Shown here: positions 7,361-40,594 of the stretch, piece after piece | Layout: each line of letters opens with the position of its first letter | Position numbering within the stretch: the first letter of the stretch is position 1 | NCBI GenBank assembly: GCA_017467745.1 | Contig: JAFUKV010000147.1 | Location: 1-47,073 of the forward strand | Reading direction: 5' to 3' | Origin: Bacteroidaceae bacterium | GTDB lineage: Bacteria; Bacteroidota; Bacteroidia; Bacteroidales; CHK158-818 | Length of the DNA: 47,073 nucleotides | Made by a program: the position numbers and the translations under genes | The notes under the pieces: generated by a model | What the model was told of the DNA's origin: nothing | Databases searched by the model: none | Seen by the model: the letters and a program-made list of their open reading frames with translations, nothing else

Positions 7361-7556
7361 AAGTTTTTCCACGACTAATCCTCAATTTTAGCCGAATTTA
7401 TATTATTCAAAAATTCTATAAACAAATTCCTGACAAAACCGACAAACCAATACAAAATCCTATAAGGACACTCAATTTTTTCACTATGCTTACCAAGACA
7501 TATATTTCCCTATATTTCCTCTGAACGCGCTGAGTAGAAATGGACAGCAAACGAAC

Positions 7557-7589
7557 AAAAAACCACAAATCAATGATTTGTGGTTTTTT
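7557..7589. terminator. Perfect 15-bp stem-loop with A/T-run arms (bidirectional terminator-like)
   Basis: aaaaaaccacaaatc / aat / gatttgtggtttttt. It lies between tRNA-Ser and the cysQ operon and could insulate the cys operon from read-through. Confidence 0.5.
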
Positions 7590-7750
7590 ATTGCCCGAGA
7601 GTCCAGCTTGCAAGACTCCAAAAGTACCGGAAAGGACAAAATACTGTTACTAAATCGTTACTAAAATCATCTTCTCGTTTTCAGTAATAATTTAGTAACG
7701 AAACTCTGTCCGAACGGGGCTTTTTGCGTCTTTCGGATGTCCAAGAAGAG

Positions 7751-7789
7751 AAATAAAAAATCCCGTAAAATATTGATTTTACGGGATTT
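7751..7789 (-). terminator. Rho-independent terminator downstream of tRNA-Ser
   Basis: 13-bp perfect stem aaatcccgtaaaa / ttttacgggattt with a 6-nt loop. On the minus strand it is followed by TTTATTT. Confidence 0.65.
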
Positions 7790-7825
7790 GTCATACTTTG
7801 ACCCTTTTTTGTCTTCGGGGTTCTG

Positions 7826-7910
7826 CGGAGAGAGAGGGATTCGAACCCCCGGAGCCTCGCAGCTCAACGGTTTTCAAGACCGCCGCAATCGACCACTCTG
7901 CCATCTCTCC
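7826..7910 (-). tRNA. tRNA-Ser (anticodon UGA), class II with long variable arm; CCA not encoded
   Basis: The reverse complement reads GGAGAGA-TG-GCAG...GCGGT-CTTGAAA-ACCGT-TGAGCTGCGAGGCTC-CGGGGGTTCGAATCCCTC-TCTCTCC-G. This gives a 7-bp acceptor stem, anticodon loop CU-UGA-AA, a GAGC/GCTC variable stem and a TTCGAAT T-loop. Confidence 0.9.
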
Positions 7911-7951
7911 TTTTCCCTATTTGAGAGTATATCTTCTCCGGAAAAGCGATG

Positions 7952-7959
7952 CAAATATA
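7952..7959 (-). promoter_or_regulatory. Candidate -7 box (TATATTTG) for tRNA-Ser
   Basis: Plus-strand CAAATATA lies ~42 nt upstream of the tRNA 5' end and matches TAnnTTTG on the minus strand. Confidence 0.35.
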
Positions 7960-8183
7960 CAAGAAGTTTTTTTTGTATGCAAGAAAAGACAAATAATTTT
8001 ATTATTTTTTATTGACCCACTTCATATATAACACACATTCCTAATTTCTCGTTTGACAGAACAACTATTCTTTACCCAATAATAAAACGAATCTTATAAC
8101 ACACCGTATCACCAATAATACTTTTTTATCAGAAAATAGCGGTTTCCAAAGAACTCTATACTAATTATCAACTCATAAGAAGC

Positions 8184-8206
8184 AAAAAGCCCGGTTTATC
8201 CGGGCT
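8184..8206 (-). terminator. Terminator downstream of mdh
   Basis: gcccgg / tttat / ccgggc hairpin. On the minus strand it is followed by a T-run (plus-strand aaaaa at 8184-8188), about 20 nt after the mdh stop. Confidence 0.55.
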
Positions 8207-8224
8207 GTTAACACTCTATATTTA

Positions 8225-9226
8225 TTATTGAATATTCTGATTCAGTTCATGCCAACATGGTATAGATGGCAAAATTCCCATCTGAATAACCTCATCCCGT
8301 AATTTACATAAATGCTCATAACTTTGCTTCAACTCGTTTTCTTCCTCAGGTGTTCCCTGCGGAATAGAATAACGAACTCCTGCTTTATCTATAACCGTTT
8401 CCATTGCCATAACAATATGATTATATTTACCGGCTGCCACATATACCCCTGCCGGCCATTTAAACGGAGCGCCTCCCATAGCAGCGGCAATCATTTCGAT
8501 AGAAAGATATGCGGGACTTTGAAAAGAAGACCGACCTCGCAAATCAATCATATGTTTTCCGCCCTGTACTACTTTCTGGCGCATTTCCATCCATTGAGAA
8601 TCTGATAACCCTTCGGATCCGATAATCTCTAACAACGGCTTATCGCCTACTTTGGCAGTAGAAGCAAATACAGCCATTTGCTCGCCGTGCCCTCCGTATG
8701 TACGGCAATTGGTAATTTCCGACGGTTGTATTTTAAAATGTTTAGCCAATTCGTTACGCAACCGAGTGCTGTCCAACGCTGCCAATGTCGTTACCTGAGT
8801 CGGTTTCAACCCTGAATACAACAATGTTATAAGCCCCGTAATATCTGCCGGATTAAAAACAATCACAACATGTTTCACATGGGGGCAGTATGCTTTTATA
8901 TCTTTTCCGAATTGCGCAGCAATTTCTGCATTTCCTTTAAGTAAATCCTCACGAGTCATTCCTGCTTTACGGGCAGCGCCACCGGAAGATACGATATACG
9001 CCGCACCCGTAAGAGCTTCTTTTATATCGCTCGTATAGGAGATATTCATATTATCGAAACCACATTGTAACAACTCTTCCGCCACACCCTCTAATGCCGG
9101 AGCATAAGGATCATACAAACAGATATTCGGCGTCAGTTTCATCATAATAGCTGTCTGCGCCATATTAGAGCCTATCATTCCTGCCGCTCCAACAATTGTA
9201 AGTTTTTCATTTGTCAAGAATTCCAT
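8225..9226 (-). CDS. mdh: Malate dehydrogenase (LDH/MDH superfamily)
   Basis: 333 aa with an N-terminal Rossmann motif (TIVGAAGMIGSNM) and LDH/MDH-like length and layout. The assignment to MDH rather than LDH is from memory of Porphyromonas-type MDH. Confidence 0.75.
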   Translation of the reverse strand: MEFLTNEKLTIVGAAGMIGSNMAQTAIMMKLTPNICLYDPYAPALEGVAEELLQCGFDNMNISYTSDIKEALTGAAYIVSSGGAARKAGMTREDLLKGNAEIAAQFGKDIKAYCPHVKHVVIVFNPADITGLITLLYSGLKPTQVTTLAALDSTRLRNELAKHFKIQPSEITNCRTYGGHGEQMAVFASTAKVGDKPLLEIIGSEGLSDSQWMEMRQKVVQGGKHMIDLRGRSSFQSPAYLSIEMIAAAMGGAPFKWPAGVYVAAGKYNHIVMAMETVIDKAGVRYSIPQGTPEEENELKQSYEHLCKLRDEVIQMGILPSIPCWHELNQNIQ

Positions 9227-9306
9227 ACTTATATTCTTTAAATATTAATGAATTGTCTTTTGACTATAAAACAAATTATCTGCTAAATTGTTATTTTATA
9301 AAGATA

Positions 9307-9314
9307 CAAAATTA
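9307..9314 (-). promoter_or_regulatory. Candidate -7 box (TAATTTTG) for mdh
   Basis: Plus-strand CAAAATTA lies 81-88 nt upstream of the mdh ATG. Confidence 0.3.
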
Positions 9315-9400
9315 TATTTTATATTGAATAACTATCCAATTAGCAAATTATTTTTATGATATAACAAATAGAAATAAACAGAACAATATTTATCTATTAT

Positions 9401-9408
9401 TATATTTG
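9401..9408 (+). promoter_or_regulatory. Candidate -7 box (TATATTTG) for the trx pair
   Basis: Matches TAnnTTTG and lies 40 nt upstream of the trxA ATG at 9448. Confidence 0.35.
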
Positions 9409-9447
9409 CATTTATATATTTCGATTGTATAACTAAACGTATTTATT

Positions 9448-9744
9448 ATGAAAGACTTTAATACGATAATTGCTTCCGAGAAACCTGTACTGGTCGACTT
9501 CTTCGCTGAATGGTGCGGACCTTGCAAGATGATGAAACCTATTTTAGAAGAATTAAAAGGGATGATTAAAGACGATGCCCAAATCATAAAAATAGATGTA
9601 GATAAACATCAGGAATTGGCCGTACAATATGGCATACAATCAGTGCCGACTCTCATGATTTTCAAAAAAGGAGAAATGTTATGGAGGCAATCGGGTGTAA
9701 TGCGAGCTCCGATGTTGAAAGAATTAATAGACAATTATAAATAA
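9448..9744 (+). CDS. trxA: Thioredoxin
   Basis: 98 aa with the WCGPC active site and thioredoxin-fold length. Confidence 0.85.
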   Translation: MKDFNTIIASEKPVLVDFFAEWCGPCKMMKPILEELKGMIKDDAQIIKIDVDKHQELAVQYGIQSVPTLMIFKKGEMLWRQSGVMRAPMLKELIDNYK

Positions 9745-9746
9745 GA

Positions 9747-10244
9747 ATGAAAAGCAAAAATATTTACAATAAGTTTTTTATATCTGCATTTATTCTATTC
9801 ATAGCCGTTCTATGTATAGTAACCATACAGGCAAAAAGCCCGTCGACTGATAAACCTTCTAAAAACAATACCGAAAAGGTACAGGTTTTGACTCTTTCTG
9901 ATATGCCTGAATTGATATATGACTATAAAAAAAATCCCGACAAATGGGTATATGAAGGGAAAAAACCTGCTATTATAGACTTTTACGCCGATTGGTGCGG
10001 ACCTTGTAAGAAAATCTCGCCCATTATGAGTAAACTGGCAAAAAAATATCAAGGAAAGATTGTTGTATATAAAGTAAATGTCGACACAGAAAAAGAGTTA
10101 GCCGCTATGTTCGGCATAAGAAGCATCCCCACTCTTGTCTACCTGCCTATGCAGGGAAAACCATTTCAATCGGTCGGTGTAATGCCTGATACGGAAAATC
10201 ATCTTGAAAAATTAATAACAGATTCTCTCTTAGTAACAAAATAA
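9747..10244 (+). CDS. Exported or membrane-anchored thioredoxin-family protein
   Basis: 165 aa with an N-terminal hydrophobic anchor (FFISAFILFIAVLCIVTI) followed by a thioredoxin fold with WCGPC. It starts 2 nt after the trxA stop. Confidence 0.75.
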   Translation: MKSKNIYNKFFISAFILFIAVLCIVTIQAKSPSTDKPSKNNTEKVQVLTLSDMPELIYDYKKNPDKWVYEGKKPAIIDFYADWCGPCKKISPIMSKLAKKYQGKIVVYKVNVDTEKELAAMFGIRSIPTLVYLPMQGKPFQSVGVMPDTENHLEKLITDSLLVTK

Positions 10245-11451: not shown

Positions 11452-12395
11452 CGACTTTTTCGCCAAGACCAATCATCCAAAGAAAAAGATGACTCTACCT
11501 GTTTTTCTATGTCATCGGGCAGTGTAGCGAAAAAGTCCAGTCCAGTTACAGACTCTACGCTATCTATCGATACGGCAAAAGAATTTATCGGTTTAGATGT
11601 ATCGCTATTCTTGAATATAAACCCGATTCCACGCGGACGGTCGTCATACGGCACTAATACCACTTTGAAAAAAGATGAGGGAACCACCACTCCTGATTTT
11701 CCTATTTTTTTCTGTTTTCTTGACGGTTTCACTATCGGTCCGCAGACAACAATTACCGCACTATCTTTTTTCGCCCACAAACGTATTTGTTCTTCAAGCA
11801 AGCGCCATGCGCCACTATTCAAATTAGGATTTTGAGGACATATATTACTGAAATAAAACGATTCTTGCATTGCCTGTTTATCCCATGTCATATCGGCTGC
11901 CGGCGCCATATGTCCCCTATCGAACCCCGAACGCCGATAATCGGCGTTTCCCGCCGACTTTCCTTTTACCTGCGGATCAGGAACAAAATTATCATCTCGT
12001 TTTACACCTCCGTCCAACTCGCTGCGAAGCAATTCATATCCCACCCAGTTCGGTATCTTCCACTCCGAATTATACGAAACCGTATATCCCTTATGCCGAA
12101 TAAGCTGTTCTTTCTTTTTCGATACGCTACGCGGCACTTCGATATTTTTATAAGGATGCTTTATCGCTTTTTTTGTTTCATAGGCAGATACCCGCTTCGA
12201 AGATACATTCCCTACGCCCTTATCCGTTTTCATTCCGCCCTGAGGCATATCTATCACAGTTTCGGTTTTTTGATACTGCATTATTTGCAATACGCCATAC
12301 AATACGAACGAAACAAATACCGCAAAAAGGAATATCAAAACCAACGATTTAAAACCGGAACGCGGTCGAGTCTTTTTCTTTTTTCTCTTTACCAT
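11448..12395 (-). CDS. DNA/RNA non-specific endonuclease (beta-beta-alpha-Me, Serratia NucA family), membrane-anchored
   Basis: DRGHMAPAADM catalytic motif, a basic N-terminus plus TM helix (KKKKTRPRSGFKSLVLIFLFAVFVSFVLYGVL), and a downstream NICPQN segment. Confidence 0.85.
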   Translation of the reverse strand: MVKRKKKKTRPRSGFKSLVLIFLFAVFVSFVLYGVLQIMQYQKTETVIDMPQGGMKTDKGVGNVSSKRVSAYETKKAIKHPYKNIEVPRSVSKKKEQLIRHKGYTVSYNSEWKIPNWVGYELLRSELDGGVKRDDNFVPDPQVKGKSAGNADYRRSGFDRGHMAPAADMTWDKQAMQESFYFSNICPQNPNLNSGAWRLLEEQIRLWAKKDSAVIVVCGPIVKPSRKQKKIGKSGVVVPSSFFKVVLVPYDDRPRGIGFIFKNSDTSKPINSFAVSIDSVESVTGLDFFATLPDDIEKQVESSFSLDDWSWRKSR

Positions 12396-12448
12396 AAGAA
12401 AATAAATTATTCCGAATCAATCTTCATGCAAATGTATGTAAAAAGTTT

Positions 12449-12456
12449 TATCTTTG
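12449..12456 (+). promoter_or_regulatory. Candidate -7 box (TATCTTTG) for pepT-gcvT
   Basis: Matches TAnnTTTG and lies 64 nt upstream of the pepT ATG. Confidence 0.3.
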
Positions 12457-12519
12457 TTTGAGTTTTCAGAAGCTGTTTTGAATACGGCAAATTAATTTCA
12501 AACCTTAATATTTACATCT

Positions 12520-13740
12520 ATGAATGTAGTAGACAGATTTCTTAGCTACACTAAGTTTGATACGCAATCGGACGAACTGACCAATATGACGCCCAGCACT
12601 CCGGGCCAAATGATTTTCGCCCAAGCCTTACAAAAAGAATTGGGTCAAATAGGAATGACCGAAATATCGTTAGACGAAAACGGTTATTTGATGGCCTCGC
12701 TACCGGCAAATACAAATAAAGAAGTCCCTGTTATCGGTTTTATAGCGCACTTGGATACAAGTCCGGATTTAAGCGGGCACAATGTTTCCCCCCGTATTGT
12801 AAAGAACTACGACGGAGGCTACATCACTCTCTGCGCAGAAGAAAACACGGTGCTCTCTCCCGAAGATTTTCCGGAATTGAAAAAATACATAGGAGAAGAC
12901 TTGATTGTTACAAACGGAAAAACGCTTTTAGGTGCTGATGACAAAGCGGGAATAGCCGAAATAATCTCGGCTATGGATTATTTAATACAGCATCCCGAAA
13001 TTAAGCATGGAAAAATAAGAATCGCTTTCACACCGGACGAAGAAATTGGAAAAGGCGCACATAAATTCAATGTAAAAAATTTCGGAGCAAAATGGGCTTA
13101 CACCCTTGATGGCGGAGAAATAGGTGAATTAGAATATGAAAATTTCAATGCCGCTATCGCCAAAATAACATTCAAAGGCAGAAACGTACATCCCGGATAC
13201 GCCAAACATAAAATGATAAACTCTATCCGTATAGCCAACCAATACGCCATTATGCTGCCACGTTGGGAAACGCCCGAACACACAGAAGGATACGAAGGCT
13301 TTTATCATTTAATAGGGTTTGAAGGCTCGGTTGAAAAAACGGTATTGACTTATATTATCCGCGACCACGACCGCGACCGCTTTGAACGGCGTAAAAAAGA
13401 ATTGGAACATTTGAGCAGAAAAATCAACCATGAGTTCCCCGATTGCGCCAGCATAGAAATAACAGACCAATACTATAATATGCGTGAAATGGTAGAACCG
13501 GTAATGCACATTGTAGATACGGCTGCGGAAGCAATGAAAGAAGCGGGAATCGTTCCGAACGTTCGTCCTGTACGAGGCGGTACGGACGGCGCTCAATTAT
13601 CTTTCAAAGGACTTCCTTGTCCCAATATTTTTGCCGGAGGACACAATTTTCACGGAAGATACGAATTCATTCCTATCAACTCCATGAACAAAGCAACGGA
13701 TGTAATAGTAAACATCGCAAAAATAACAGCACAAAAATAA
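12520..13740 (+). CDS. pepT: Peptidase T (tripeptide aminopeptidase, M20B)
   Basis: N-terminus [19 protein letters not shown], metal ligands AHLDT and [10 protein letters not shown], and a PDEEIG segment. Confidence 0.9.
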
Positions 13741-20133: not shown

Positions 20134-20174
20134 AAAAGAGTCCCTACCGAAAACCTTCGGCAGAGGGCTCTTTT
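20134..20174 (-). terminator. Terminator downstream of the inositol-3-phosphate synthase gene
   Basis: Imperfect ~15-bp stem (agagtccctaccgaa / ttcggcagagggctct, with one mismatch and one bulge) flanked by A/T runs. It lies between the MIPS stop (20207) and the acyltransferase start (20096). Confidence 0.5.
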
Positions 20175-20206: not shown

Positions 20207-21505
20207 TTAGTCGATATAATCCAACGTTTCTTCTCCAATAATTTTACGAAGCGTATTTTTCAGTTTTACGTATTGTATGAATAAGTCATGTTCGGGTACT
20301 GTTTCGAAATCGTGCATCGGACTCTTGAAGTAGAACGACAGCCATGACTGGATACCTGAAAATCCGCAACGGGCAGCCAAATCTGTCAATAATACTAAAT
20401 CAAGACACAAAGGAGCAGCCAAAATAGAGTCGCGGCAAAGGAAATCTACTTTCAATTGCATCGGATACCCCATCCATCCGAAAATATCGATATTATCCCA
20501 ACCTTCTTTATTATCTTTGCGAGGCGGGTAATAATTGATACGTACTTTATGATAGATATTTCCGTATAATTCAGGATATAAATCGGGTTGCAGAATAGTA
20601 TCTATTACCGACAGCTTACTAACCTCTTTGGTTTTGAAAGAATCCGGATCGTCCAACACTTCACCGTCTCTATTACCTAATATATTAGTTGAGAACCAAC
20701 CGTTCAATCCGAGCATTCTGGTCTTCAACATCGGAGACAAAACGGTTTTCATCATTGTTTGTCCGGTCTTAAAGTCTTTACCGCAAATAGGCACATTCAT
20801 TTTTTCGGCCAATTGCCACATAGCAGGCATATCTACCGTCAATGCGGGCGCCCCGTTAATGAAAGGAACTCCTTCTGCAATAGCGGCGTATGCGTAACAC
20901 ATACTGGGAGCTATTTCGCAACTATTCTCTTTCATTGCTTGCTCCAATTTTGCCAAGTCTTTATGCACTTCGCCCATCGGCAAATATACTTCTGTACTTG
21001 CGCACCAGATAACGACCAAACGGTCGCAATTATTTTTAGTCTTAAAATTACGAATATCTTCACGCAATTGTTGAACTAAATCCCAGCGTGTAGCGGCTTC
21101 TTTTACCCATGTTCCGTGCAACCGTTTAACGAAATTTTGATCGAAAGCGGCTTTCATAGGTTTGATAGCTTGAAGTTCATCTTTCACGCCATCAAGATCT
21201 TTCGGCAACAATACTTCTGCATTTTTAGCAGCTTCGTACACATCTTCTTCAAAAATGTCCCATCCGCCAAATACGATATCATCGAGTTTTGCCAAAGGTA
21301 CTACGTCTTTTATTTTCGGGAATCTGTTTTCATTTCTTTTTCCCAATCTCATAGTAGCTAATTGTGTTATAGAACCTATCGGCTGAGCCAAACCTTTACG
21401 TACAGCCAATGTACCAACAATAAAGGTCGATGCAACAGCACCACCGACACCAACTACCAGTACGCCAAGTTTTCCGTTGGCTTCTTTTACATTAATTTCT
21501 TTCAT
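20207..21505 (-). CDS. ino1: myo-Inositol-3-phosphate synthase (MIPS)
   Basis: 432 aa with an N-terminal Rossmann motif (GVLVVGVGGAVAST) and STNILGNRDG, which corresponds to the conserved MIPS SxNxLGNxDG block. Confidence 0.9.
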   Translation of the reverse strand: MKEINVKEANGKLGVLVVGVGGAVASTFIVGTLAVRKGLAQPIGSITQLATMRLGKRNENRFPKIKDVVPLAKLDDIVFGGWDIFEEDVYEAAKNAEVLLPKDLDGVKDELQAIKPMKAAFDQNFVKRLHGTWVKEAATRWDLVQQLREDIRNFKTKNNCDRLVVIWCASTEVYLPMGEVHKDLAKLEQAMKENSCEIAPSMCYAYAAIAEGVPFINGAPALTVDMPAMWQLAEKMNVPICGKDFKTGQTMMKTVLSPMLKTRMLGLNGWFSTNILGNRDGEVLDDPDSFKTKEVSKLSVIDTILQPDLYPELYGNIYHKVRINYYPPRKDNKEGWDNIDIFGWMGYPMQLKVDFLCRDSILAAPLCLDLVLLTDLAARCGFSGIQSWLSFYFKSPMHDFETVPEHDLFIQYVKLKNTLRKIIGEETLDYID

Positions 21506-21604
21506 TTCTTCATTGTTTTTATATAGCTTATTATAAAAGCTGATGATTAACGTTTTTGTATTTTTAACTTACAATCTACCTATTAGATTTTAAAATCTAT
21601 GTTA

Positions 21605-21612
21605 CAAATATA
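21605..21612 (-). promoter_or_regulatory. Candidate -7 box (TATATTTG) for the MIPS gene
   Basis: Plus-strand CAAATATA lies in the 181-nt AT-rich gap, about 100 nt upstream of the MIPS ATG. Confidence 0.3.
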
Positions 21613-21686
21613 TGAATTATTCATTAAGACATTAGTTTTTTACCAAAAATCTATTTCAGTAAAATAAAAAAGATTCTACAAATGCT

Positions 21687-22406
21687 TTATAATAGCAATT
21701 CTTTTAAATCAACAAAATTATACACAGTATGTTTATGTTCTTGTTTATTCTCTTCGTCTGTCCATCCCTTTCCTTTAATCCAGATAGTCTGACATCCCAG
21801 TGATTGAGCCGGTACAATATCTTTTTTATAACTATCTCCTATTACCGCCGTTTCTTCCGGATGAAGCGCTAACGCTCTCACGCCTAAATCAAAAATAGCA
21901 GGATCGGGTTTCCTAATTTTTACCACAGCCGATTCTATTATTGTTTTAAAATATGAATCCAACCCAAAATCGGACAACACTGTTTGAATGTTTCCATAAA
22001 AATTAGATACCATCACCATCGGATATTTTTCATGCAACAGAGCAATAAGTTCTTTGGCTTTCGACACCGTTTCCCGTGCAAATTCATAACAAATACCGGC
22101 AATAGACACCACGAAAAATTCCACTTTCTCATTCGTTTCTAAATAACCGTGCTCTACAAGATATTGCATTTGTAATTTCACCTTTGTTTCCAAGACATTA
22201 TAAAAATTATGTTCTGGACGGATATAAGGATGTGTAGCCAACGAGCGTTCTCCAAAAACATACGCATCTCGAAACTGAGTTTTTTCAACCGGAACTTGAA
22301 CTTGCGTATAAGCATCCCACAGAACCTCAGACCAATGATCACCATTTGAGTCTATCGTTCCTCCATAATCGAATATTATGCCTTTTATACCCTGTAATAC
22401 GCTCAT
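21687..22406 (-). CDS. HAD-superfamily (subfamily IA-like) phosphatase
   Basis: Motif I variant IIFDYGGTID, motif II MVMVSNF, motif III KIRKPDP and motif IV VIGDSYKKD. Its start overlaps the upstream stop by 4 nt (ATGA). Confidence 0.8.
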   Translation of the reverse strand: MSVLQGIKGIIFDYGGTIDSNGDHWSEVLWDAYTQVQVPVEKTQFRDAYVFGERSLATHPYIRPEHNFYNVLETKVKLQMQYLVEHGYLETNEKVEFFVVSIAGICYEFARETVSKAKELIALLHEKYPMVMVSNFYGNIQTVLSDFGLDSYFKTIIESAVVKIRKPDPAIFDLGVRALALHPEETAVIGDSYKKDIVPAQSLGCQTIWIKGKGWTDEENKQEHKHTVYNFVDLKELLL

Positions 22407-23323
22407 TTCTCTAATACTATTTTATTTACGAAATATTTACATATACTTTCGTGCTTAGATATCATGTACAGCAATAAAATATTCAATACTGTCAACTCAA
22501 ATACGAAATAAAACCAAGGTAAATTCACAAATATGGAAATAAAAAGAACTATTATCCGCGTATTGAACGATAAAATATTGGTGTACTTCATAAGCGGTTT
22601 ACTTTGCTGACGAAACTGGTTTCTTAACCAATCGGGTACATCGTCTCCATATCTCATTTTCATCTGTTGGCGAAACATCTGCATAGATGGCGAAACCCGC
22701 TCCTGCCCCTGCGTGTAATTGATATAAAAAAGCATGATTAGTTTTTTCCAAAAATGCCCCTTCCAAGGCAGAGTTTTATTGGTTTCTTTCAATTTCGCAA
22801 CTTCATCCAATTCACTGCCATTCTTTCCTTTTACCATATAGAGGTGAAAATTACGGTAATAATCGGCCATAGCAGCCTGCCTCACATGAAAAACACCGGC
22901 AATGGCGGCTAAAAAGAAAATAGATGCGTCCCATCCCTGATGCATCATCCGTACACACACGGCAATATATATCGTTATAAACCATAAATCTCCGCTCAAA
23001 CCATCTAAAATACGCCCTATACGAGAATAATTTCCTGTCATCCGCGCCAACTGTCCATCTGCACTGTCCAAAGAATTTGCCAGAACAATCAATGCCATTC
23101 CTACGACATTATACATTAAATCGACATATCCCAATAAAATACCGCCTGCAACTCCTATAAAAATAGAAATCACGGTAACGACATTCGGTACAATCCCGAA
23201 CTTCTGACATAAAAGAGCCCACCTATATCCGATAGGTCTATAAAACAGGAGGTCTAAGGTCTCTTCCGTATCCATAGATTTGAGCGTCGACTCTAACGTC
23301 GGCTTCTTCACATTCTTCTCCAT
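22403..23323 (-). CDS. CDP-alcohol phosphatidyltransferase family protein (polytopic membrane enzyme)
   Basis: DSADGQLARMTGNYSRIGRILDGLSGD corresponds to the DxxDGxxAR...G...D...D signature. The protein has multiple TM helices and is 306 aa. Confidence 0.85.
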   Translation of the reverse strand: MEKNVKKPTLESTLKSMDTEETLDLLFYRPIGYRWALLCQKFGIVPNVVTVISIFIGVAGGILLGYVDLMYNVVGMALIVLANSLDSADGQLARMTGNYSRIGRILDGLSGDLWFITIYIAVCVRMMHQGWDASIFFLAAIAGVFHVRQAAMADYYRNFHLYMVKGKNGSELDEVAKLKETNKTLPWKGHFWKKLIMLFYINYTQGQERVSPSMQMFRQQMKMRYGDDVPDWLRNQFRQQSKPLMKYTNILSFNTRIIVLFISIFVNLPWFYFVFELTVLNILLLYMISKHESICKYFVNKIVLEK

Positions 23324-23341
23324 AAGATTAAACTATAACCG

Positions 23342-24214
23342 TTAATAATGACACACTTGTTTTTTTACTATTCGTTCTATCGCCATTCCAATATACGGAG
23401 CCGCCATATCTCGACAAGGAGCAAAACTAGGCCAGTCATTTAAATCAATAATACGAATCTCTCCATCGGGAGAAATGATACAATCACCTCCATATATATC
23501 CACATTTAAAACCTCCGCCGCTTCCGAACAAATCTCCCGCATTTCATTTTCCGAAAACGGTATTCCGGTCGCTTTTCCATTAATCTGTTCATGTCCGAAT
23601 TTGCTATGATGAAGATCAAATGGGTAAAACCAATAAAAGAAATCGGTTCCTCTTACTGCATAGAACTTTATCAAATCTCCTATTAAATGACGATTAATAA
23701 CGGCTCTTTCTATGCCTCGCATAGCATATTCCGACAATATTCCTTGCGCCTCCTCAGGATGACGGGCAAAACTGACATCCTCTTTATGTATTACATGAAA
23801 ATCTCCCCTTTTTAACCAGCACTGATTCATTTTTTTTTCTTGCAACAGTTCTATTATAGACAACGATGTTTCCACAATAAGACTTTCCGGATAAGGTACA
23901 TGGTTTTTCATCAACAACCTTGTCATTTTTTCGCGAGTGCAGTTCTCAATACCATAACCCGAATTTGTAATGACACACCCTTCATCTTCGAGCTGCTGTA
24001 ACTTCTTTATCGCTGCCTCTGAACGAGACATATTGAAAATAACTTTTTCTTTTATATTTGAAGATACGAATTCCGACTCATCGTACTCATTTACTACGTA
24101 ACCGCGTTCACGTAAAAAAGAAACAACCAAATTGAATATAGCGGCATCGTTGCCCACATGATTAGGCGAAAATTTATTTTCTCTTCGTACTCCGGCTAAA
24201 ATTTCCTTTTTCAT
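23342..24214 (-). CDS. ATP-grasp-fold-like protein of unknown function
   Basis: 290 aa. The C-terminal GEIRIIDLNDWPSF resembles the D/E-x-N Mg-ATP motif of ATP-grasp enzymes (RimK/ITPK1-like xxDxNxFPG), and CWLKRGDFHVIHKEDV resembles a lysine-containing ATP-binding strand. The assignment is by eye only. Confidence 0.45.
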   Translation of the reverse strand: MKKEILAGVRRENKFSPNHVGNDAAIFNLVVSFLRERGYVVNEYDESEFVSSNIKEKVIFNMSRSEAAIKKLQQLEDEGCVITNSGYGIENCTREKMTRLLMKNHVPYPESLIVETSLSIIELLQEKKMNQCWLKRGDFHVIHKEDVSFARHPEEAQGILSEYAMRGIERAVINRHLIGDLIKFYAVRGTDFFYWFYPFDLHHSKFGHEQINGKATGIPFSENEMREICSEAAEVLNVDIYGGDCIISPDGEIRIIDLNDWPSFAPCRDMAAPYIGMAIERIVKKQVCHY

Positions 24215-24246
24215 TAATTTTAATATTAGAACAAACTTCTCTCAAA

Positions 24247-24942
24247 TCAACGCAAAAAAACTTCTGCTTTCGCAATATCCGAAGCATGATCTACATCTAT
24301 AATTTTTGTAAACGGATATGCTTTTAAGTTCAAACCGCATGTTACCAAACGACGCTGGAAATTTCTCATACGCGATACACCTTCGTCTATACACTGCTTC
24401 AACACCGGTATCGCGGCAGATGTCAGCCCATAAATACCGCCCGATATATATTTCGACCCCATATAATCAGCATCTCTGAAACTCAAAATATTATTATCAG
24501 TATCCGTTTCTACATATAAAGGCTTTTCATCGTCTATATAAGAGGTTACCCCCATCAATCCGTCAATTCCAGAAGTTTTGGAAAACGCTTTTACATAAGC
24601 GGCAAAATCATCCTCACGAAAAATAGTATCGACCGTAGTAAGACAAAATTTATCCGATTTTATTCCCGCCGACAGTTCATAAAAACTATGCATTGAACTT
24701 GGCGTAGATTTTACAAGCAAACGTATCGGATATTGTAAAGAAAGCGCTTTTATATGTTCCTGAACTTCTACCATCTCATTATTCACAATAATGTGAACAG
24801 CATCCGCGTCTTGCGCCATAAAAATCTTTATCAGACGATCTATCATATGTTCTCCGCCAATTTTTATTAGAGGTTTTGGCAAAGAAACTCCTTCTTCTAC
24901 TAACCGCGATCCCTCGCCAGCTGCTATTATAGCAAATTCCAT
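24247..24942 (-). CDS. Nucleotidyltransferase (NTP-transferase fold; candidate inositol-1-phosphate cytidylyltransferase)
   Basis: N-terminal AIIAAGEGSRL...LPKPL signature of sugar/polyol-phosphate nucleotidyltransferases; 231 aa. It is the first gene of the inositol cluster. Confidence 0.8.
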   Translation of the reverse strand: MEFAIIAAGEGSRLVEEGVSLPKPLIKIGGEHMIDRLIKIFMAQDADAVHIIVNNEMVEVQEHIKALSLQYPIRLLVKSTPSSMHSFYELSAGIKSDKFCLTTVDTIFREDDFAAYVKAFSKTSGIDGLMGVTSYIDDEKPLYVETDTDNNILSFRDADYMGSKYISGGIYGLTSAAIPVLKQCIDEGVSRMRNFQRRLVTCGLNLKAYPFTKIIDVDHASDIAKAEVFLR

Positions 24943-25084: not shown

Positions 25085-26188
25085 TTAGTCTTCTTTCGAT
25101 TCCGATTGCAAATCAAGGACCTCTTTATCGCCGCTCTTATCAAAATATTGTTTTCTTAACGGATTAGCCGAGATTTCGGCATAGATTTTACGATTGCAAT
25201 AAATATCGATTGCCGTGTACAAGGCTTGCCTGAAAGATGACTCCGAAGCAATATTCTGCCCTGTAATATCGTATGCAGTGCCGTGATCGGGGGAAGTACG
25301 CACTATCGGAAGGCCTGCTGTAAAATTAACCCCATTCTCCATTGCAATAGCTTTAAACGGAGTTAATCCTTGATCATGATACATTGCCAGCACACCATCG
25401 AATTTCTTATAATGGTCTGAACCGAAGAACCCATCGGCTGCATAAGGGCCGAAGCAAAGAATGCCTGCATTCTCCGCTTCTTTTAATGCCGGGATAATCG
25501 TATCGGTTTCCTCCGTTCCCAACAAATCGTTATCTCCCGCATGCGGATTCATTGAAAGTACGGCTATTCGAGGCTTTATTATTTGAAAATCTTGTTTAAG
25601 GCAAGTATTAAAGATTTGCAGCTTTTCAAGAATCAACTCTTTCGTTACTTTTTTAGGAACTTCCGCCAACGGAATATGTCCCGTAACCAAAGCTACCCGC
25701 AAATCTTCACACATAAGAATCATAAGAGATTGCGCACCCTTCCCTAATCTTGATTCAAGATATTCGGTATGTCCGGGAAATGAAAAATTATCAGATTGAA
25801 TATTATTTTTATTTATCGGCGCCGTAACGAGAACATCTATTAAACCTTTTTCCATATCGGCAACAGCGGCTTCTAATGCAAGATAGGCTGCTTCGCCTCC
25901 CTGAGGCGTAGGTTTGGAAAGCTCTACCCTAACCTCTTCGTCCATACAGTTTATAATATTCAACCGAGACGGCAATACGGACAAAGCATCGGCCGCTATA
26001 TTGAAATTAAGAGGTGGAAAATTGAGCGCCTTACGATGATATGCCAACACTTTGGAAGATCCGTACACAACAGGGGTACATATTTCCGTAATACGCGGAT
26101 CGGACAAAGTCTTTAAAATTACTTCATAACCTATTCCGTTTATATCTCCTTGCGTTATACCGACCTTTATTTTATTATTCTGTGCCAT
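25085..26188 (-). CDS. pdxA: 4-hydroxythreonine-4-phosphate dehydrogenase
   Basis: GITQGDINGIGYEVILK, FPGHTEYL and PHAGDN motifs; 367 aa. Confidence 0.9.
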   Translation of the reverse strand: MAQNNKIKVGITQGDINGIGYEVILKTLSDPRITEICTPVVYGSSKVLAYHRKALNFPPLNFNIAADALSVLPSRLNIINCMDEEVRVELSKPTPQGGEAAYLALEAAVADMEKGLIDVLVTAPINKNNIQSDNFSFPGHTEYLESRLGKGAQSLMILMCEDLRVALVTGHIPLAEVPKKVTKELILEKLQIFNTCLKQDFQIIKPRIAVLSMNPHAGDNDLLGTEETDTIIPALKEAENAGILCFGPYAADGFFGSDHYKKFDGVLAMYHDQGLTPFKAIAMENGVNFTAGLPIVRTSPDHGTAYDITGQNIASESSFRQALYTAIDIYCNRKIYAEISANPLRKQYFDKSGDKEVLDLQSESKED

Positions 26189-26200
26189 ATATTATATATA

Positions 26201-27250
26201 TTAATTTATCTGTTTTATAGAATCTGTTTCTACGGTTATTTCTTCTAAACTCATCTTTTGAGGGACTTTCAATGTGTACAATACAGCCTCCATTTTATGA
26301 ACTAAATCGGCTTTACTCATTTCGGGAGCATACACAAAAGCTTCTACCGTTATAAGGCGCTGATTCAATTCGTCTACCTGAGTGAGACTGATATACGGAC
26401 CTCCCATTATATCGCCTTCCATTTCCCATAAACCGCGCATCTCTACGCAATACGCATTATTCAAATTTACAATATGAGATACGGGAGGCATCACCTTTTT
26501 GTGTGTAGTCATATATGATCCTTCCGGACCTCCGGGTATATTTATTTTCATAACCGAATCGCGCAAAGCAATAAGATTCTGCGGATCTAATTGCGAAATC
26601 GAGTTATATGGTACGGCATATACAACATAATCTGTTCGCCGTTTATATGCGCCATTAGATATCCAAAAGAAATTATCCCCCTGTTTTATTTTTCCCAAAT
26701 CGTCAGGCAAAGTCAGTAGAATATTCATCTGTTCATACAACCTATCACTTGCCAACTTATCTGTTTTCTTTTTCAACTGCGCTATTTGTCTCTCCCGTTC
26801 CGCTTTATTCAAAAAATGAATAAGACGCCATTTATTTTTTATGACAAAATCTTTAAGAAGGTCTTTTTCTGACGCTTTAACCCTCAAAACAACCTGCCCG
26901 TCCGCCCAAAGATCTTCACTATAAGAAAGGCGGGGCGATCTTGCATTTTGATCTATTTCAACAATTAAAATGTTCCGAACAGGTTTCAGCAAATCATCAA
27001 ATTTATTTGTAGGTGTTTGCGAAATTGAAAAATAGGGTTCATTCTGCGGCAAACCGGGTATAGGAGAATCTAAAACGTCCCGTACAGCCTGTCCTACCTC
27101 TCCTTTCAGCAGATCTCCGTCCGCAACAACCAGTACTTCGTACGGAGAGCCTATCGCCGACGGTAATAATGAAGAACCGTTACCGCAACTTTGCAATAAC
27201 AGTACTAAACATATCCCCCAATATATGTACCTACCCGGTAGTTTTATCAT
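26201..27250 (-). CDS. Lipoprotein of unknown function (DUF4837-like)
   Basis: Lipoprotein signal LVLLLQSCGNG. The SPYEVLVVAD...PGLPQNEPYF pattern resembles DUF4837 proteins, from memory. Confidence 0.5.
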   Translation of the reverse strand: MIKLPGRYIYWGICLVLLLQSCGNGSSLLPSAIGSPYEVLVVADGDLLKGEVGQAVRDVLDSPIPGLPQNEPYFSISQTPTNKFDDLLKPVRNILIVEIDQNARSPRLSYSEDLWADGQVVLRVKASEKDLLKDFVIKNKWRLIHFLNKAERERQIAQLKKKTDKLASDRLYEQMNILLTLPDDLGKIKQGDNFFWISNGAYKRRTDYVVYAVPYNSISQLDPQNLIALRDSVMKINIPGGPEGSYMTTHKKVMPPVSHIVNLNNAYCVEMRGLWEMEGDIMGGPYISLTQVDELNQRLITVEAFVYAPEMSKADLVHKMEAVLYTLKVPQKMSLEEITVETDSIKQIN

Positions 27251-27383: not shown

Positions 27384-27647
27384 CTAACTGTAATTTTGAT
27401 TTATCGCCTCAGTTTTCTCTTTTGTCGTTTGCAACAAACCATCTTTATGCAACATAACGTAAATAGATGCTGTGGAGTATGCCCAACATGTACCTGAGAT
27501 TTGCTGTTTAACCGGAGAAGCCGAAACTTCTGTTATTACAGATAAAGCGGGCGGAACTTTCGCAGGAATACTCACTTTTTCCGTTTTATGTTGTTTTTCT
27601 ATACATGCAATACAACATAAAAAAATAAGCAAAAAACCTTTTTTCAT
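27384..27647 (-). pseudogene. Short lipoprotein ORF resembling the N-terminal stump of a papain-like (C1 family) cysteine peptidase
   Basis: 87 aa with a lipobox (LIFLCCIAC). QQISGTCWAYSTAS resembles the catalytic-Cys block Qxx(S/C)G(S/T)CW(A/S)(F/Y)S. The ORF ends ~30 aa later, and only 133 nt remain before the next gene. Confidence 0.35.
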
Positions 27648-39366: not shown

Positions 39367-40590
39367 TTATTTATTTTTCTTTTTCAAAGGTTTTCCTTCA
39401 AACGAATACCCAAGACTCCAATACAGATACTGCGCTTTACTAAATCGAGAAGCTCGAATACCGAACGTACCGAAAAGATTATCTTTCAAATATCCTTTAA
39501 CACCCATAATCTGATAAAAACGATAATCATATTTATTCCCATGCAATAAATTGTAACCGAAATTAGCGAATATAGATATATGCGGCATAGTTACTTCTCC
39601 TTTCATGGAAAGGCCTATCGAGAATCTATCCCAAACGTCTCCCAGTTCTACACGGTCATAATACAAACCGTCAACAGGATGTTTTTCGCGCCATGCCCGA
39701 GCGCCGGAACTTTCATCATACACAACTTCCATACTGGGGCCCCACCTGTATTTATAACTATTTACAATCATCGGCGCATAGCCCAATCCAAAAACTTTAA
39801 ACTGACGGTCTATATAACGAGAAGGCAATCCTGTACCTGTGGTATCAAACCGTATCTGCCGAGATGTAATATTAAACAACAGATCATGAACGATATGCTT
39901 TTCCATTTCGGGAGGCGTCAAATCTGACGATAATAAAGTAGAAAGTTGCGGGCGATTTATATTATAAACCAATTCCAGATAAGGCGCCACTAAGTTAAGT
40001 CCCTTATTAGGCAAACGATATGCACCGTTAGAAAAATGCGTTAAAGACAATCCCATATTCAAATCAAAGACATCATTCATGCGCCATTTCATATACATAC
40101 TTCCCGCCACGTAAACGTTTACGGAAGAACCTAACGCTACATTATTAGGATTATCGAACGGGTCATAGGATTTCCAATTAAACGACATCCCCAAGTTCCA
40201 CTCATAGTTCAACGACCACTTCGGATTAAAACGCCGTATTGTAGCCCCTTGAAAAAGATAAAGCGCAAAAGGCAATCCCAAATCTTTTTTTCTCAAAAAA
40301 TTACCCGAATAAAAACCCAATCCGTAATAGGGCATTCCATAAGCCTTATCCTGCCATGTATCGCCCTTCGATCCAAAACCGTATTTCAATGAAAACGAGC
40401 TGTAATAAGGTATCTTATTCTTACCGCTCACAAAATCATTCGTCGGGAAAACCCATCCTCCTTTTGCATCTACTGCAATAAACGAAGGCTTTTTGGTTTT
40501 TATTTCATCTCCCGAATCGGCCGCCACTGCCGATTCGGGGTAAAACAACAAACCTGCCAGAAAAGCCCATACAAAAAAAATCCTGTTCAT
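39367..40590 (-). CDS. Outer-membrane acyloxyacyl hydrolase / lipid A deacylase (PagL-like) family protein
   Basis: Signal peptide (FLAGLLFYPESAVAAD) and beta-barrel periodicity. LSLTHFSNGAYRLPNKGLN resembles the PagL His-x-Ser catalytic block (HxSNxG). At 407 aa it is longer than classical PagL. Confidence 0.55.
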   Translation of the reverse strand: MNRIFFVWAFLAGLLFYPESAVAADSGDEIKTKKPSFIAVDAKGGWVFPTNDFVSGKNKIPYYSSFSLKYGFGSKGDTWQDKAYGMPYYGLGFYSGNFLRKKDLGLPFALYLFQGATIRRFNPKWSLNYEWNLGMSFNWKSYDPFDNPNNVALGSSVNVYVAGSMYMKWRMNDVFDLNMGLSLTHFSNGAYRLPNKGLNLVAPYLELVYNINRPQLSTLLSSDLTPPEMEKHIVHDLLFNITSRQIRFDTTGTGLPSRYIDRQFKVFGLGYAPMIVNSYKYRWGPSMEVVYDESSGARAWREKHPVDGLYYDRVELGDVWDRFSIGLSMKGEVTMPHISIFANFGYNLLHGNKYDYRFYQIMGVKGYLKDNLFGTFGIRASRFSKAQYLYWSLGYSFEGKPLKKKNK

Positions 40591-40594
40591 GTCT

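Follow-up and report, generated by a model that had tools for sequence, protein, structure and literature searches.

A widespread inositol-lipid gene cluster of Bacteroidales, predicted to act through CDP-inositol, has an ATP-grasp protein among its core members

Inositol sphingolipids are abundant membrane lipids of gut and oral Bacteroidales. In Bacteroides thetaiotaomicron they have been tied to capsule structure, antimicrobial-peptide resistance and host fitness (Heaver et al., 2022; PMC9246714), and the locus BT_1522–BT_1526 encodes a route to them that comprises myo-inositol-3-phosphate synthase (MIPS), a phosphatidylinositol phosphate (PIP) synthase dependent on cytidine diphosphate-diacylglycerol (CDP-DAG), a PIP phosphatase (BT_1525) and an AUR1-like inositol-phosphoceramide (IPC) synthase (BT_1522) (PMC9246714). 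The same authors described a 'putative alternative' cluster, typified by Bacteroides (Phocaeicola) vulgatus, in which genes for a nucleotidyltransferase, a CDP-alcohol phosphatidyltransferase and a protein of the haloacid dehalogenase (HAD) superfamily lie beside that for MIPS; it is about four times commoner than the B. thetaiotaomicron type in Prevotella, and is also found in B. vulgatus and B. dorei (PMC9246714). Here we consider five minus-strand genes of a Bacteroidaceae bacterium (assembly GCA_017467745.1, contig JAFUKV010000147.1, positions 1–47,073; this whole stretch of 47,073 nucleotides is referred to as the window), which encode, in order, a nucleotidyltransferase, an ATP-grasp protein, a CDP-alcohol phosphotransferase, a HAD hydrolase and MIPS (Table 1), and which quite probably direct the synthesis of an inositol lipid by way of CDP-inositol.

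In the part of their report that deals with lipid analysis by high-performance liquid chromatography–mass spectrometry, Heaver et al. (PMC9246714) record inositol-phospho-dihydroceramide (PI-DHC) in B. vulgatus and Prevotella veroralis, despite the absence of BT_1522, BT_1523 and BT_1525 from these organisms. The scheme that they proposed, and declared unconfirmed, is Kennedy-like: CTP and inositol phosphate would give CDP-inositol, from which would come phosphatidylinositol (PI) built on diacylglycerol (PI-DAG), to be converted to PI-DHC by the HAD protein (PMC9246714). A literature search found neither functional follow-up of this alternative cluster nor a bacterial ATP-grasp inositol kinase; a transposon-sequencing paper on P. 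merdae deals with the B. thetaiotaomicron-type cluster. The B. thetaiotaomicron route resembles the one proposed here in starting with MIPS, in ending in PI-DHC and in belonging to gut Bacteroidales, but differs in that its PIP is made out of CDP-DAG and inositol phosphate; the transferase of the window scores only 18 bits, against a cut-off of 350, on the model (NF052561) for PIP synthases of the BT_1523 type.

The closest demonstrated precedent, missed in the original prediction for this DNA, is the MIPS–IPCT–BEPIS operon of Rhodothermus marinus, in which IPCT (an inositol-1-phosphate cytidylyltransferase) together with BEPIS has been shown experimentally to bring about the donation of the head group of CDP-inositol to an ether lipid (Jorge et al., as cited in PMC4587543). 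In both cases MIPS is in the operon and CDP-inositol, rather than CDP-DAG, would be the donor of phospho-inositol to a lipid alcohol; but as the cited account describes it, the acceptor is a dialkylether glycerol, and MIPS, IPCT and BEPIS are listed with neither an ATP-grasp nor a HAD gene. The cytidylyltransferase of R. marinus is, moreover, recognisable as an IPCT, whereas in Tannerella forsythia Megson et al. (PMC4587543) report a homologue of BEPIS but did not find an IPCT. The archaeal and Thermotoga pathway for di-myo-inositol-phosphate (DIP) employs the same four enzyme classes (MIPS, IPCT, DIPPS and a phosphatase) and the same CDP-inositol intermediate, but there the acceptor is an inositol phosphate and the product a solute, and both the equivalog model and PDB entry 4mnd have IPCT fused to DIPPS. 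DIP is a solute of hyperthermophiles. Compared with the IPCT/DIPPS and IPCT/BEPIS systems, the cluster in the window has two extra enzymes.

The window locus answers to the published description of the alternative cluster: the three domains score above Pfam gathering thresholds, their genes are contiguous and co-directional, and MIPS follows 181 nt downstream of the HAD gene. It is therefore another member of the set predicted by Heaver et al. (2022), matched by description to the B. vulgatus locus (BVU_RS13095, BVU_RS13105 and BVU_RS13115, which lies outside the best 80 loci of the scan described below), and is not new as a gene set. There is one clear difference, in that 'ATP-grasp' does not occur anywhere in PMC9246714, where the HAD protein is assigned as the PI-DHC synthase, whereas the ATP-grasp gene proves here to be a conserved core member; the earlier remark that an ATP-grasp step fits neither known route is thus borne out. 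What is new beyond the literature searched is this core position together with fusions to the nucleotidyltransferase, a resemblance to ITPK kinases, a link to T. forsythia, and invariant deviations in motifs of the HAD protein and the transferase. An ATP-grasp protein at the core, probably a kinase coupled to a cytidylyltransferase, alters the published pathway scheme, for a pathway that is widespread in gut and oral bacteria and is now directly testable by enzyme assays and deletions.

The evidence for the core position comes from a scan of one genome per species, in which relatives of the ATP-grasp protein were present in at least 577 genomes; gene order was counted in the best 80 loci, each count taking in only those loci with enough sequence on the relevant side. 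The nucleotidyltransferase gene is directly upstream of the ATP-grasp gene in 72 of 76 loci, the CDP-alcohol phosphotransferase gene directly downstream of it in 72 of 74, and the HAD gene directly after the transferase in 67 of 70. Overall, the order nucleotidyltransferase–ATP-grasp–transferase–HAD is kept in about 95% of loci and is still present among homologues of 37–45% identity, in hosts that include Muribaculaceae, Parabacteroides distasonis, T. forsythia and metagenome-assembled genomes labelled Prevotellaceae, Barnesiella and Alloprevotella; of the 37 loci with room on both sides, 21 have MIPS no more than about 10 kb away from the four-gene set. Such an arrangement is far beyond chance. 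The ATP-grasp family comprises 988 representative clusters at 50% identity, and seven of the top 150 representatives are fusions of an N-terminal NTP_transferase domain to a C-terminal ATP-grasp domain (one of the fusion genes being followed by transferase and HAD genes). Since the domains are fused in seven representative clusters, there is strong evidence that the two predicted activities would be consecutive. Pairs or fusions of kinase and nucleotidyltransferase are the usual logic of salvage pathways (Fkp, LicA/LicC, AmgK/MurU).

Some variants of the arrangement were seen (loci are given here by our own L numbers). In L084 (1452–3020, plus strand) a nucleotidyltransferase–ATP-grasp fusion is followed, after about 300 nt on a short contig, by a class I/II aminotransferase gene instead of one for a CDP-alcohol transferase, and in L088 an aminotransferase gene is upstream on the opposite strand. 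A protein of 691 aa (P0228) has PAS, HisKA and HATPase_c domains joined to a C-terminal ATP-grasp copy (residues 425–679), which could be a real fusion or an artefact of gene calling. In L006 and L007 there is a gap of about 1 kb (about 11800–12850) between the transferase and HAD genes, and in the divergent locus L089 this position is occupied by a gene (9053–10144, plus strand) for an LPG_synthase_TM (MprF flippase-like) protein, which the window cluster does not have. A homologue of BT_1521, of the LPG_synthase_TM family, is found near both types of cluster (PMC9246714), and an insertion of the L089 type would fit the gaps in the locus tags of B. vulgatus.

How might these enzymes act together? 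In the five-step scheme that we propose, and to which we would give somewhat less than an even chance, the locus would be an inositol-phosphate-lipid operon of the Kennedy type with CDP-inositol as donor. MIPS places its phosphate at the 1D-3 position, and 1D-1 is the point of linkage in canonical PI and IPC, so a CDP-inositol route that retained the activated phosphate would have to reposition it. After the conversion of glucose-6-phosphate to 1D-myo-inositol-3-phosphate by MIPS, an ITPK-like ATP-grasp kinase would add the future phosphodiester phosphate, giving an inositol bisphosphate (it may also phosphorylate imported inositol), and the nucleotidyltransferase would activate this newly added phosphate with CTP. 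The CDP-alcohol phosphotransferase would then move phospho-inositol onto (dihydro)ceramide or DAG, and the HAD enzyme would strip off the phosphate derived from MIPS, either before cytidylylation, in the manner of GmhB, or on the lipid, in the manner of phosphatidylglycerol phosphate (PGP) or PIP phosphatases. In this scheme each of the five genes has a part, the fusions are accounted for and there is room for salvage of inositol. Gene content and order, folds, fusions and the ranking of sequence affinities are observed here, and the formation of PI-DHC by species with the cluster comes from the literature, whereas every substrate, the use of CTP, the activity of the kinase, the point at which the HAD enzyme acts and the stereochemical rationale are inferred. 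The main product would most likely be PI-DHC, possibly with PI as well. A more specific version, in which the ATP-grasp, HAD and nucleotidyltransferase proteins would constitute an unrecognised CDP-inositol route, with the 3-phosphate removed by the HAD enzyme and ceramide turned directly, without passing through PI, into 1D-1-linked IPC of a 'eukaryote-like' stereochemistry, is conceivable but seems to us rather unlikely.

There is a parallel in the synthesis of nucleoside diphosphate (NDP)-heptose, which employs a kinase (HddA or HldE), a HAD phosphatase (GmhB) and a nucleotidyltransferase (HddC). There too a kinase makes up for a phosphate in the 'wrong' position, a HAD enzyme strips off the old one and the new one is nucleotidylated, and HddC-like proteins are among the best PDB matches of the nucleotidyltransferase of the window (3e-11). 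The pathways differ in that the heptose is a sugar and not a cyclitol, that no ATP-grasp enzyme serves as the kinase, and that GmhB has a canonical DxD motif I.

The assignment of the ATP-grasp ORF (open reading frame) is central to the scheme. The ORF had no match in Pfam or NCBIfam. Its AlphaFold2 model (pLDDT 96.4) retrieved ATP-grasp structures such as Ddl, LysX and RimK in a Foldseek search (E about 1e-13, TM-score 0.6–0.7), and residues of the ATP/Mg site are conserved across 84 sequences (K135, D244 and N259 invariant, K183 and D257 in at least 90%), R11, R64, R94, H176 and D260 being conserved residues as well; on this modelled fold it is a member of the ATP-grasp superfamily. Entamoeba ITPK1 was the top PDB match, both for the single sequence (8e-5) and for a profile of close homologues (4e-6). 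When a diverse profile of the 84 sequences was used, PsnB came first (1e-5), followed by EhITPK1 (2e-4), AtITPK4 (1e-3) and HsITPK1 (1e-2), with GshB, LysX and the LysX/RimK-type ligase 3vpd ranking below these three ITPKs (0.1–0.25). Towards the C-terminus, GGD...IDxNDWPSF aligns with the ITPK motif G.D...[IV]DxN..P[SG][FY], and D-x-N-x-[WF]-P-S-[FY] is common to both; in the aligned segment all three ITPKs have G.D...[IV]-D-x-N-x-[WFL]-P-[SG]-[FY] in common with the window protein. At the second Mg-ligand motif, classical ATP-grasp ligases have E-x-N; in the alignment PsnB has E-x-N, and the window protein and the ITPKs have D-x-N. The sequence evidence thus leans towards the ITPK kinases, weakly though consistently, and we predict, at about even odds, that the enzyme is a kinase. 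Both Ins(1)P and Ins(3)P are substrates of ITPK1, and in Lokiarchaeum the genes for ITPK (LcIK) flank those for MIPS (PMC6900528). The likeness to the ITPK family (Entamoeba, plant, human ITPK1/4 and LcIK) thus lies in the ATP-grasp fold, the C-terminal motif and the best or near-best PDB sequence match, and the difference in a lack of any match of the window protein to PF05770, E-values of only 1e-2 to 4e-6, and a whole-structure search that favours ligases. If the prediction holds, bacteria would here have their first ITPK-type inositol-phosphate kinase, and the range of such enzymes would extend beyond eukaryotes and Asgard archaea.

Circumstantial support for a kinase comes from T. forsythia. 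In the account of Megson et al. (PMC4587543), strain ATCC 43037 has inositol-phospho-dihydroceramides as about 25% of its membrane lipids and makes them from exogenous inositol; the organism has neither MIPS nor IMPase, and its investigators could find no candidate for an inositol kinase or an IPCT. We find an intact nucleotidyltransferase–ATP-grasp–transferase–HAD set in this organism, which supplies a candidate kinase and a candidate cytidylyltransferase; if these are borne out, the missing inositol kinase and cytidylyltransferase of T. forsythia would be identified. The idea in the original prediction that the ATP-grasp step might signal a new product is accordingly weakened, as the fusions, the similarity to ITPKs and the situation in T. 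forsythia point to a kinase instead, and an ATP-grasp enzyme need not mean a new product. Just ahead of the T. forsythia set (L011), on the same strand, is a gene (7536–9206, plus strand) for a permease of the Asp-Al_Ex/TrkA_C family (556 aa), which ends shortly before the nucleotidyltransferase match begins at 9266; it is a candidate for the transporter by which T. forsythia imports inositol.

The proposed direction of the transferase reaction draws on the affinities of that protein, which matches Pfam CDP-OH_P_transf (PF01066) with 42.3 bits against a gathering score of 22 (E 1.3e-10). When its family profile was compared with the PDB, the order was AF2299 (2e-9), CEPT1 (9e-7), CHPT1 (4e-5), PIP synthases (8e-3 to 4e-2), DIPPS (5e-2), PgsA (0.1) and PssA (0.15). 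CEPT1 and CHPT1 take a CDP-alcohol as donor and a lipid as acceptor, and PIP synthases, PgsA and PssA are users of CDP-DAG; as for AF2299, to our knowledge its physiological substrates are undefined. A structural model built from database homologues (AlphaFold2, pLDDT 89) likewise had AF2299 as its first Foldseek match, although weakly (E 1e-3, TM-score 0.5), and all of the top matches were members of the family. This ranking supports a predicted reaction of the Kennedy type, between CDP-inositol and a lipid alcohol, and the earlier suggestion to that effect fits the data, the profile being nearer to AF2299 and CEPT1/CHPT1 than to the synthases that use CDP-DAG.

The nucleotidyltransferase is less easily placed. 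It matches Pfam NTP_transferase (2e-10) and NTP_transf_3 (6e-10), and a profile of its orthologues retrieved from the PDB RmlA (2e-12), HddC-like proteins (3e-11), 4jd0 (5e-9, over the full length), the Archaeoglobus fulgidus IPCT 2xme (2e-8) and LicC (1e-6). On the NCBIfam IPCT/DIPPS equivalog NF041135 it scored 39 bits (4e-10), far below the cut-off of 580. Given this score and PDB matches that are those of generic sugar-1-phosphate nucleotidyltransferases, membership of the IPCT family was rejected; the assignment as an IPCT in the original prediction holds for the fold family, but the specific family could not be demonstrated by profile searches. CTP is presumed to be the nucleotide because the CDP-alcohol family, so far as its enzymes have been characterised, takes donors that are activated with CDP.

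The HAD protein has Pfam matches to Hydrolase (4e-17), HAD_2 and Hydrolase_like; motifs II (SNFYGN), III (KPD) and IV (GDSxxKD) are invariant among its orthologues, with D13, S134, K166 and D190/D195 all in invariant motifs. PDB searches returned only generic type-IA HADs, with motif I outside all five of the alignments shown. The 4-nt overlap of its gene with that for the transferase, a fusion of the two proteins in P. veroralis (PMC9246714) and weak matches to PGP_phosphatase (Gep4-type; E 0.002 for the window protein, and weak again in orthologues) together suggest that it acts on the product of the transferase. On the other hand, in L085 and L086 the HAD gene is directly beside the nucleotidyltransferase and ATP-grasp genes with no transferase gene between them, which suggests a soluble module like that of the kinase, GmhB and nucleotidyltransferase.

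Several observations count against the five-step scheme and have to be set beside this evidence. The residue two positions beyond the nucleophilic Asp of a HAD enzyme is the general acid/base usual for the hydrolysis of ordinary phosphomonoesters, and here motif I is FDYGGT, with Gly at that position in 74 of 74 orthologues and also in three more divergent ones (L082, L085 and L086). We do not take this as proof against a phosphatase, since Gly stands at the same site (FDLGNV) in Escherichia coli YihX, whose annotation is that of a glucose-1-phosphate phosphatase, and the shared substitution leaves phosphatase activity plausible; but YihX is the sole precedent checked and its substrate is a sugar-1-phosphate with a good leaving group, which tells against a role as a simple inositol-monophosphate phosphatase, and the substrate of the HAD enzyme of the cluster might conceivably also be one with a good leaving group. 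The earlier suggestion that the HAD protein removes a residual phosphate therefore stands as plausible in respect of the nucleophile and motifs II–IV, which are intact, but not in respect of the general acid/base, which is missing from all orthologues. Furthermore, the HAD gene is intact in T. forsythia although MIPS is not present there, which speaks against its serving only to turn the product of MIPS into free inositol by dephosphorylation. In the transferase signature DxxDGxxAR-x8-GxxxD-x4-D the fourth Asp is shifted by one residue (GxxxDxxxGD) in 77 of 77 orthologues, none of which has the canonical spacing GxxxD3xxxD4, a variant specific to this family in which D1, D2, G, AR, G and D3 are kept; and in the nucleotidyltransferase profile search IPCT 2xme ranks behind RmlA, HddC and ManC.

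The kinase assignment is subject to similar difficulties. The top ranks in the Foldseek search were taken by carboxylate-amine ligases (Ddl, ArgX/LysX, RimK and PsnB; E 6e-14 to 2e-12), and no ITPK was found within the top 50. With so flat a list of ligases, assignment by structure was dropped, and the kinase reading rests on sequence motifs and context because the structure search does not support it. The window protein has no match to Pfam Ins134_P3_kin (PF05770); when Pfam matches were counted as votes over 84 family members, RimK and ATPgrasp_ST had nine each and Ins134_P3_kin and TTL six each, the best Ins134_P3_kin E-value being a weak 0.004, and this vote was discarded as ambiguous. Free inositol is not a substrate of recombinant eukaryotic ITPK1 (PMC6900528), so that the argument from T. 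forsythia needs a broader specificity. Finally, a 2023 review still describes the alternative route as 'predicted in silico', no gene of a cluster of this type having been characterised; the statement in the original prediction that an alternative cluster with a nucleotidyltransferase had been proposed only bioinformatically agrees with this review and with Heaver et al. (2022).

The best-surviving alternative, although improbable in our judgement, is that the ATP-grasp enzyme is a true ligase, which would work via an acyl-phosphate and join an amino acid or other carboxylate to inositol, to an inositol phosphate or to the head group, giving a product not yet described. The structural matches just mentioned (PsnB forming ester bonds), the position of PsnB at the head of the 84-sequence profile search (1e-5), and the JGI and UniRef names of family members ('glutathione synthase/RimK-type ligase-like') are all in keeping with such an activity. 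Against this, the second Mg-ligand motif is the D-x-N of ITPKs and not the E-x-N of PsnB, and C-terminal fusion to a nucleotidyltransferase is better suited to a kinase that supplies its substrate; moreover, it is plain lipids that are reported in T. forsythia, B. vulgatus and P. veroralis, with no aminoacylated form mentioned in the lipid sections of the two reports (PMC4587543; PMC9246714).

A second alternative is the model of Heaver et al. (2022) as published, with Ins3P cytidylylated directly, PI-DAG made from DAG by the transferase, the HAD protein as PI-DHC synthase and the ATP-grasp protein uninvolved. It was supported by its authors with the P. veroralis fusion of transferase and HAD domains (PMC9246714), and it is consistent with the direct use of the MIPS product by the IPCTs of archaea, Thermotoga and Rhodothermus, according to the account given in PMC4587543. 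An idle ATP-grasp gene, however, would hardly be kept between the nucleotidyltransferase and transferase genes in about 95% of loci, and fused to the former in several lineages; the HAD protein, of type IA, is soluble and its motifs are those of an ordinary phosphatase; and the use of free inositol by T. forsythia is left unexplained. The known IPC synthases (AUR1 and BT_1522) belong, besides, to the PAP2 family and are not HAD proteins. We therefore consider this model, taken as a whole, to have little chance of being right.

We would rate just as low a mycobacterial-type pathway, in which the transferase would make PIP from CDP-DAG and inositol phosphate, the HAD protein would be the PIP phosphatase, and the ATP-grasp protein and nucleotidyltransferase would serve only in the salvage of inositol or in some unrelated use of activated inositol, for instance in capsule synthesis. 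The top NCBIfam matches of the transferase do include archaetidylinositol-phosphate synthase (6e-10) and PIP synthase (NF045883; 5e-7), but with scores far under the cut-offs (39 against 180 bits and 30 against 170, to be added to the result on the BT_1523-type model given above), and enzymes dependent on CDP-DAG fall below AF2299, CEPT1 and CHPT1 in the family profile. It is also true that in known cases a phosphatase follows the CDP-alcohol transferase when the acceptor is phosphorylated, and that inositol has been detected in the capsule of B. thetaiotaomicron (PMC9246714); but the cytidylyltransferase would be left without a role, and the cluster contains no AUR1-like IPC synthase to take PI to PI-DHC. 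That the cluster makes a soluble compound, CDP-inositol and inositol phosphate giving a phosphorylated DIP from which the HAD enzyme would release DIP (a product that had been entertained at the outset), is highly improbable: the enzyme set is formally that of DIP synthesis and there are weak matches to the IPCT/DIPPS equivalog (nucleotidyltransferase, 4e-10; transferase, 1.6e-4), but these amount to 39 and 21 bits against a cut-off of 580, DIPPS ranks low in the transferase profile (0.05), the hosts are gut and oral Bacteroidales, taken as mesophiles, the ATP-grasp gene is unexplained, and species that bear the cluster make an inositol sphingolipid, inositol-phospho-dihydroceramide.

As to the organisation of the locus, the five co-directional genes, their ORF coordinates, their spacings (gaps of 32 nt and 18 nt, a 4-nt overlap and a gap of 181 nt, from the nucleotidyltransferase gene through to MIPS) and the motifs AAGEGSRL...PKPL, DSADGQLAR and STNILGNRDG in their translations are exactly as in the original prediction. 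Four of the five proteins pass Pfam gathering scores (MIPS with NAD_binding_5, 1e-110, and Inos-1-P_synth, 5e-33), the ATP-grasp protein being the exception, and no family beyond those assigned to the five genes was found in the Pfam scan of the cluster. A strong terminator-like hairpin follows MIPS, between its stop (20207) and the start (20096) of the next gene, so the five genes make up a bounded unit.

Table 1. Features of the inositol-lipid locus and its downstream flank in the window.
Feature	Position	Strand	Assignment and remarks
Nucleotidyltransferase, 231 aa	24247..24942	-	Predicted CTP:inositol-phosphate cytidylyltransferase; Pfam NTP_transferase
ATP-grasp protein, 290 aa	23342..24214	-	Predicted inositol / inositol-phosphate kinase; AlphaFold2 fold, without Pfam match
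Divergent CDP-alcohol phosphotransferase, 306 aa	22403..23323	-	Predicted CDP-inositol:ceramide (or DAG) inositolphosphotransferase; Pfam CDP-OH_P_transf
HAD-superfamily hydrolase, 239 aa	21687..22406	-	Predicted phosphatase for MIPS-derived phosphate; Pfam Hydrolase
HAD–MIPS gap, 181 nt	21506..21686	-	Possible internal promoter
Myo-inositol-3-phosphate synthase (MIPS), 432 aa	20207..21505	-	Pfam NAD_binding_5 and Inos-1-P_synth
Terminator-like hairpin	20142..20165	-	10-bp stem with 5 G-C pairs, then T-run
GlsA/OlsF-N-like O-acyltransferase, 278 aa	19260..20096	-	Pfam Acyltransf_2; possible accessory gene, not core

The gap between the HAD and MIPS genes is AT-rich and carries, at 21612–21605 on the minus strand, the sequence TATATTTG, which we take to fit the Bacteroides −7 consensus TAnnTTTG, as a lead and not as a statistical result. 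Bacteroidales promoters differ from the sigma-70 consensus, and for this reason, and because the 20 sites found compare with 23.5 expected, a scan for sigma-70 promoters was discarded as uninformative. By protein sequence, the window is 98–99% identical to a contig of assembly GCA_947627035.1, and the nearest named relatives, an uncultured Bacteroidales bacterium and Candidatus Gallibacteroides avistercoris, are both at about 81%; a megablast search of the cluster against plasmids gave no match.

The acyltransferase gene beyond the hairpin gives a Pfam match to Acyltransf_2 (3e-21) and falls short of the NCBIfam cut-offs both for OlsF (156 bits, cut-off 620) and for GlsA (124 bits, cut-off 260), and is accordingly taken as a paralogue. 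Its position beside the cluster varies: it comes after MIPS in the window and in L006 (15011–15826) and L007 (15010–15810), but between the ATP-grasp and transferase genes in L010 (11560–12366) and L056 (13663–14457). Lipid GL2 of T. forsythia bears, as described in PMC4587543, a fatty acid joined by an ester bond to the 3-OH acyl chain, and a GlsA/OlsF-N-like enzyme could therefore be the acylator of inositol-phosphoceramide.

Upstream of the cluster, PdxA is encoded directly next to it in 56 of 81 loci, with DUF4837 further upstream in five of these (at an 80% coverage threshold); in the window the PdxA/DUF4837 stretch occupies 25085–27250 (minus strand). The pairing with PdxA looks like a conserved neighbourhood rather than a functional association, though its regularity is striking. 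In the gap of about 400 nt between DUF4837 and a radical-SAM gene there is an 87-aa ORF (27384–27647, minus strand), with a hydrophobic N-terminus and a sequence, SGTCWAYS, reminiscent of the active site in peptidases of the papain-like (C1) kind; the ORF is without a Pfam match, the near-identical contig L001 has no called gene at this place, and it may be a gene remnant. At some distance, 39367–46129 (minus strand) encodes a bacterial alpha-2-macroglobulin of 1844 aa (MG2, bMG3/5/6/10, A2M and TED domains) beside a PagL-like protein (lipid A 3-O-deacylase), in the stretch of highest G+C in the window (0.44–0.455, against 0.36–0.40 around the cluster). The single Rfam match in the window at the gathering threshold is a tRNA gene at 7826–7910 (minus strand).

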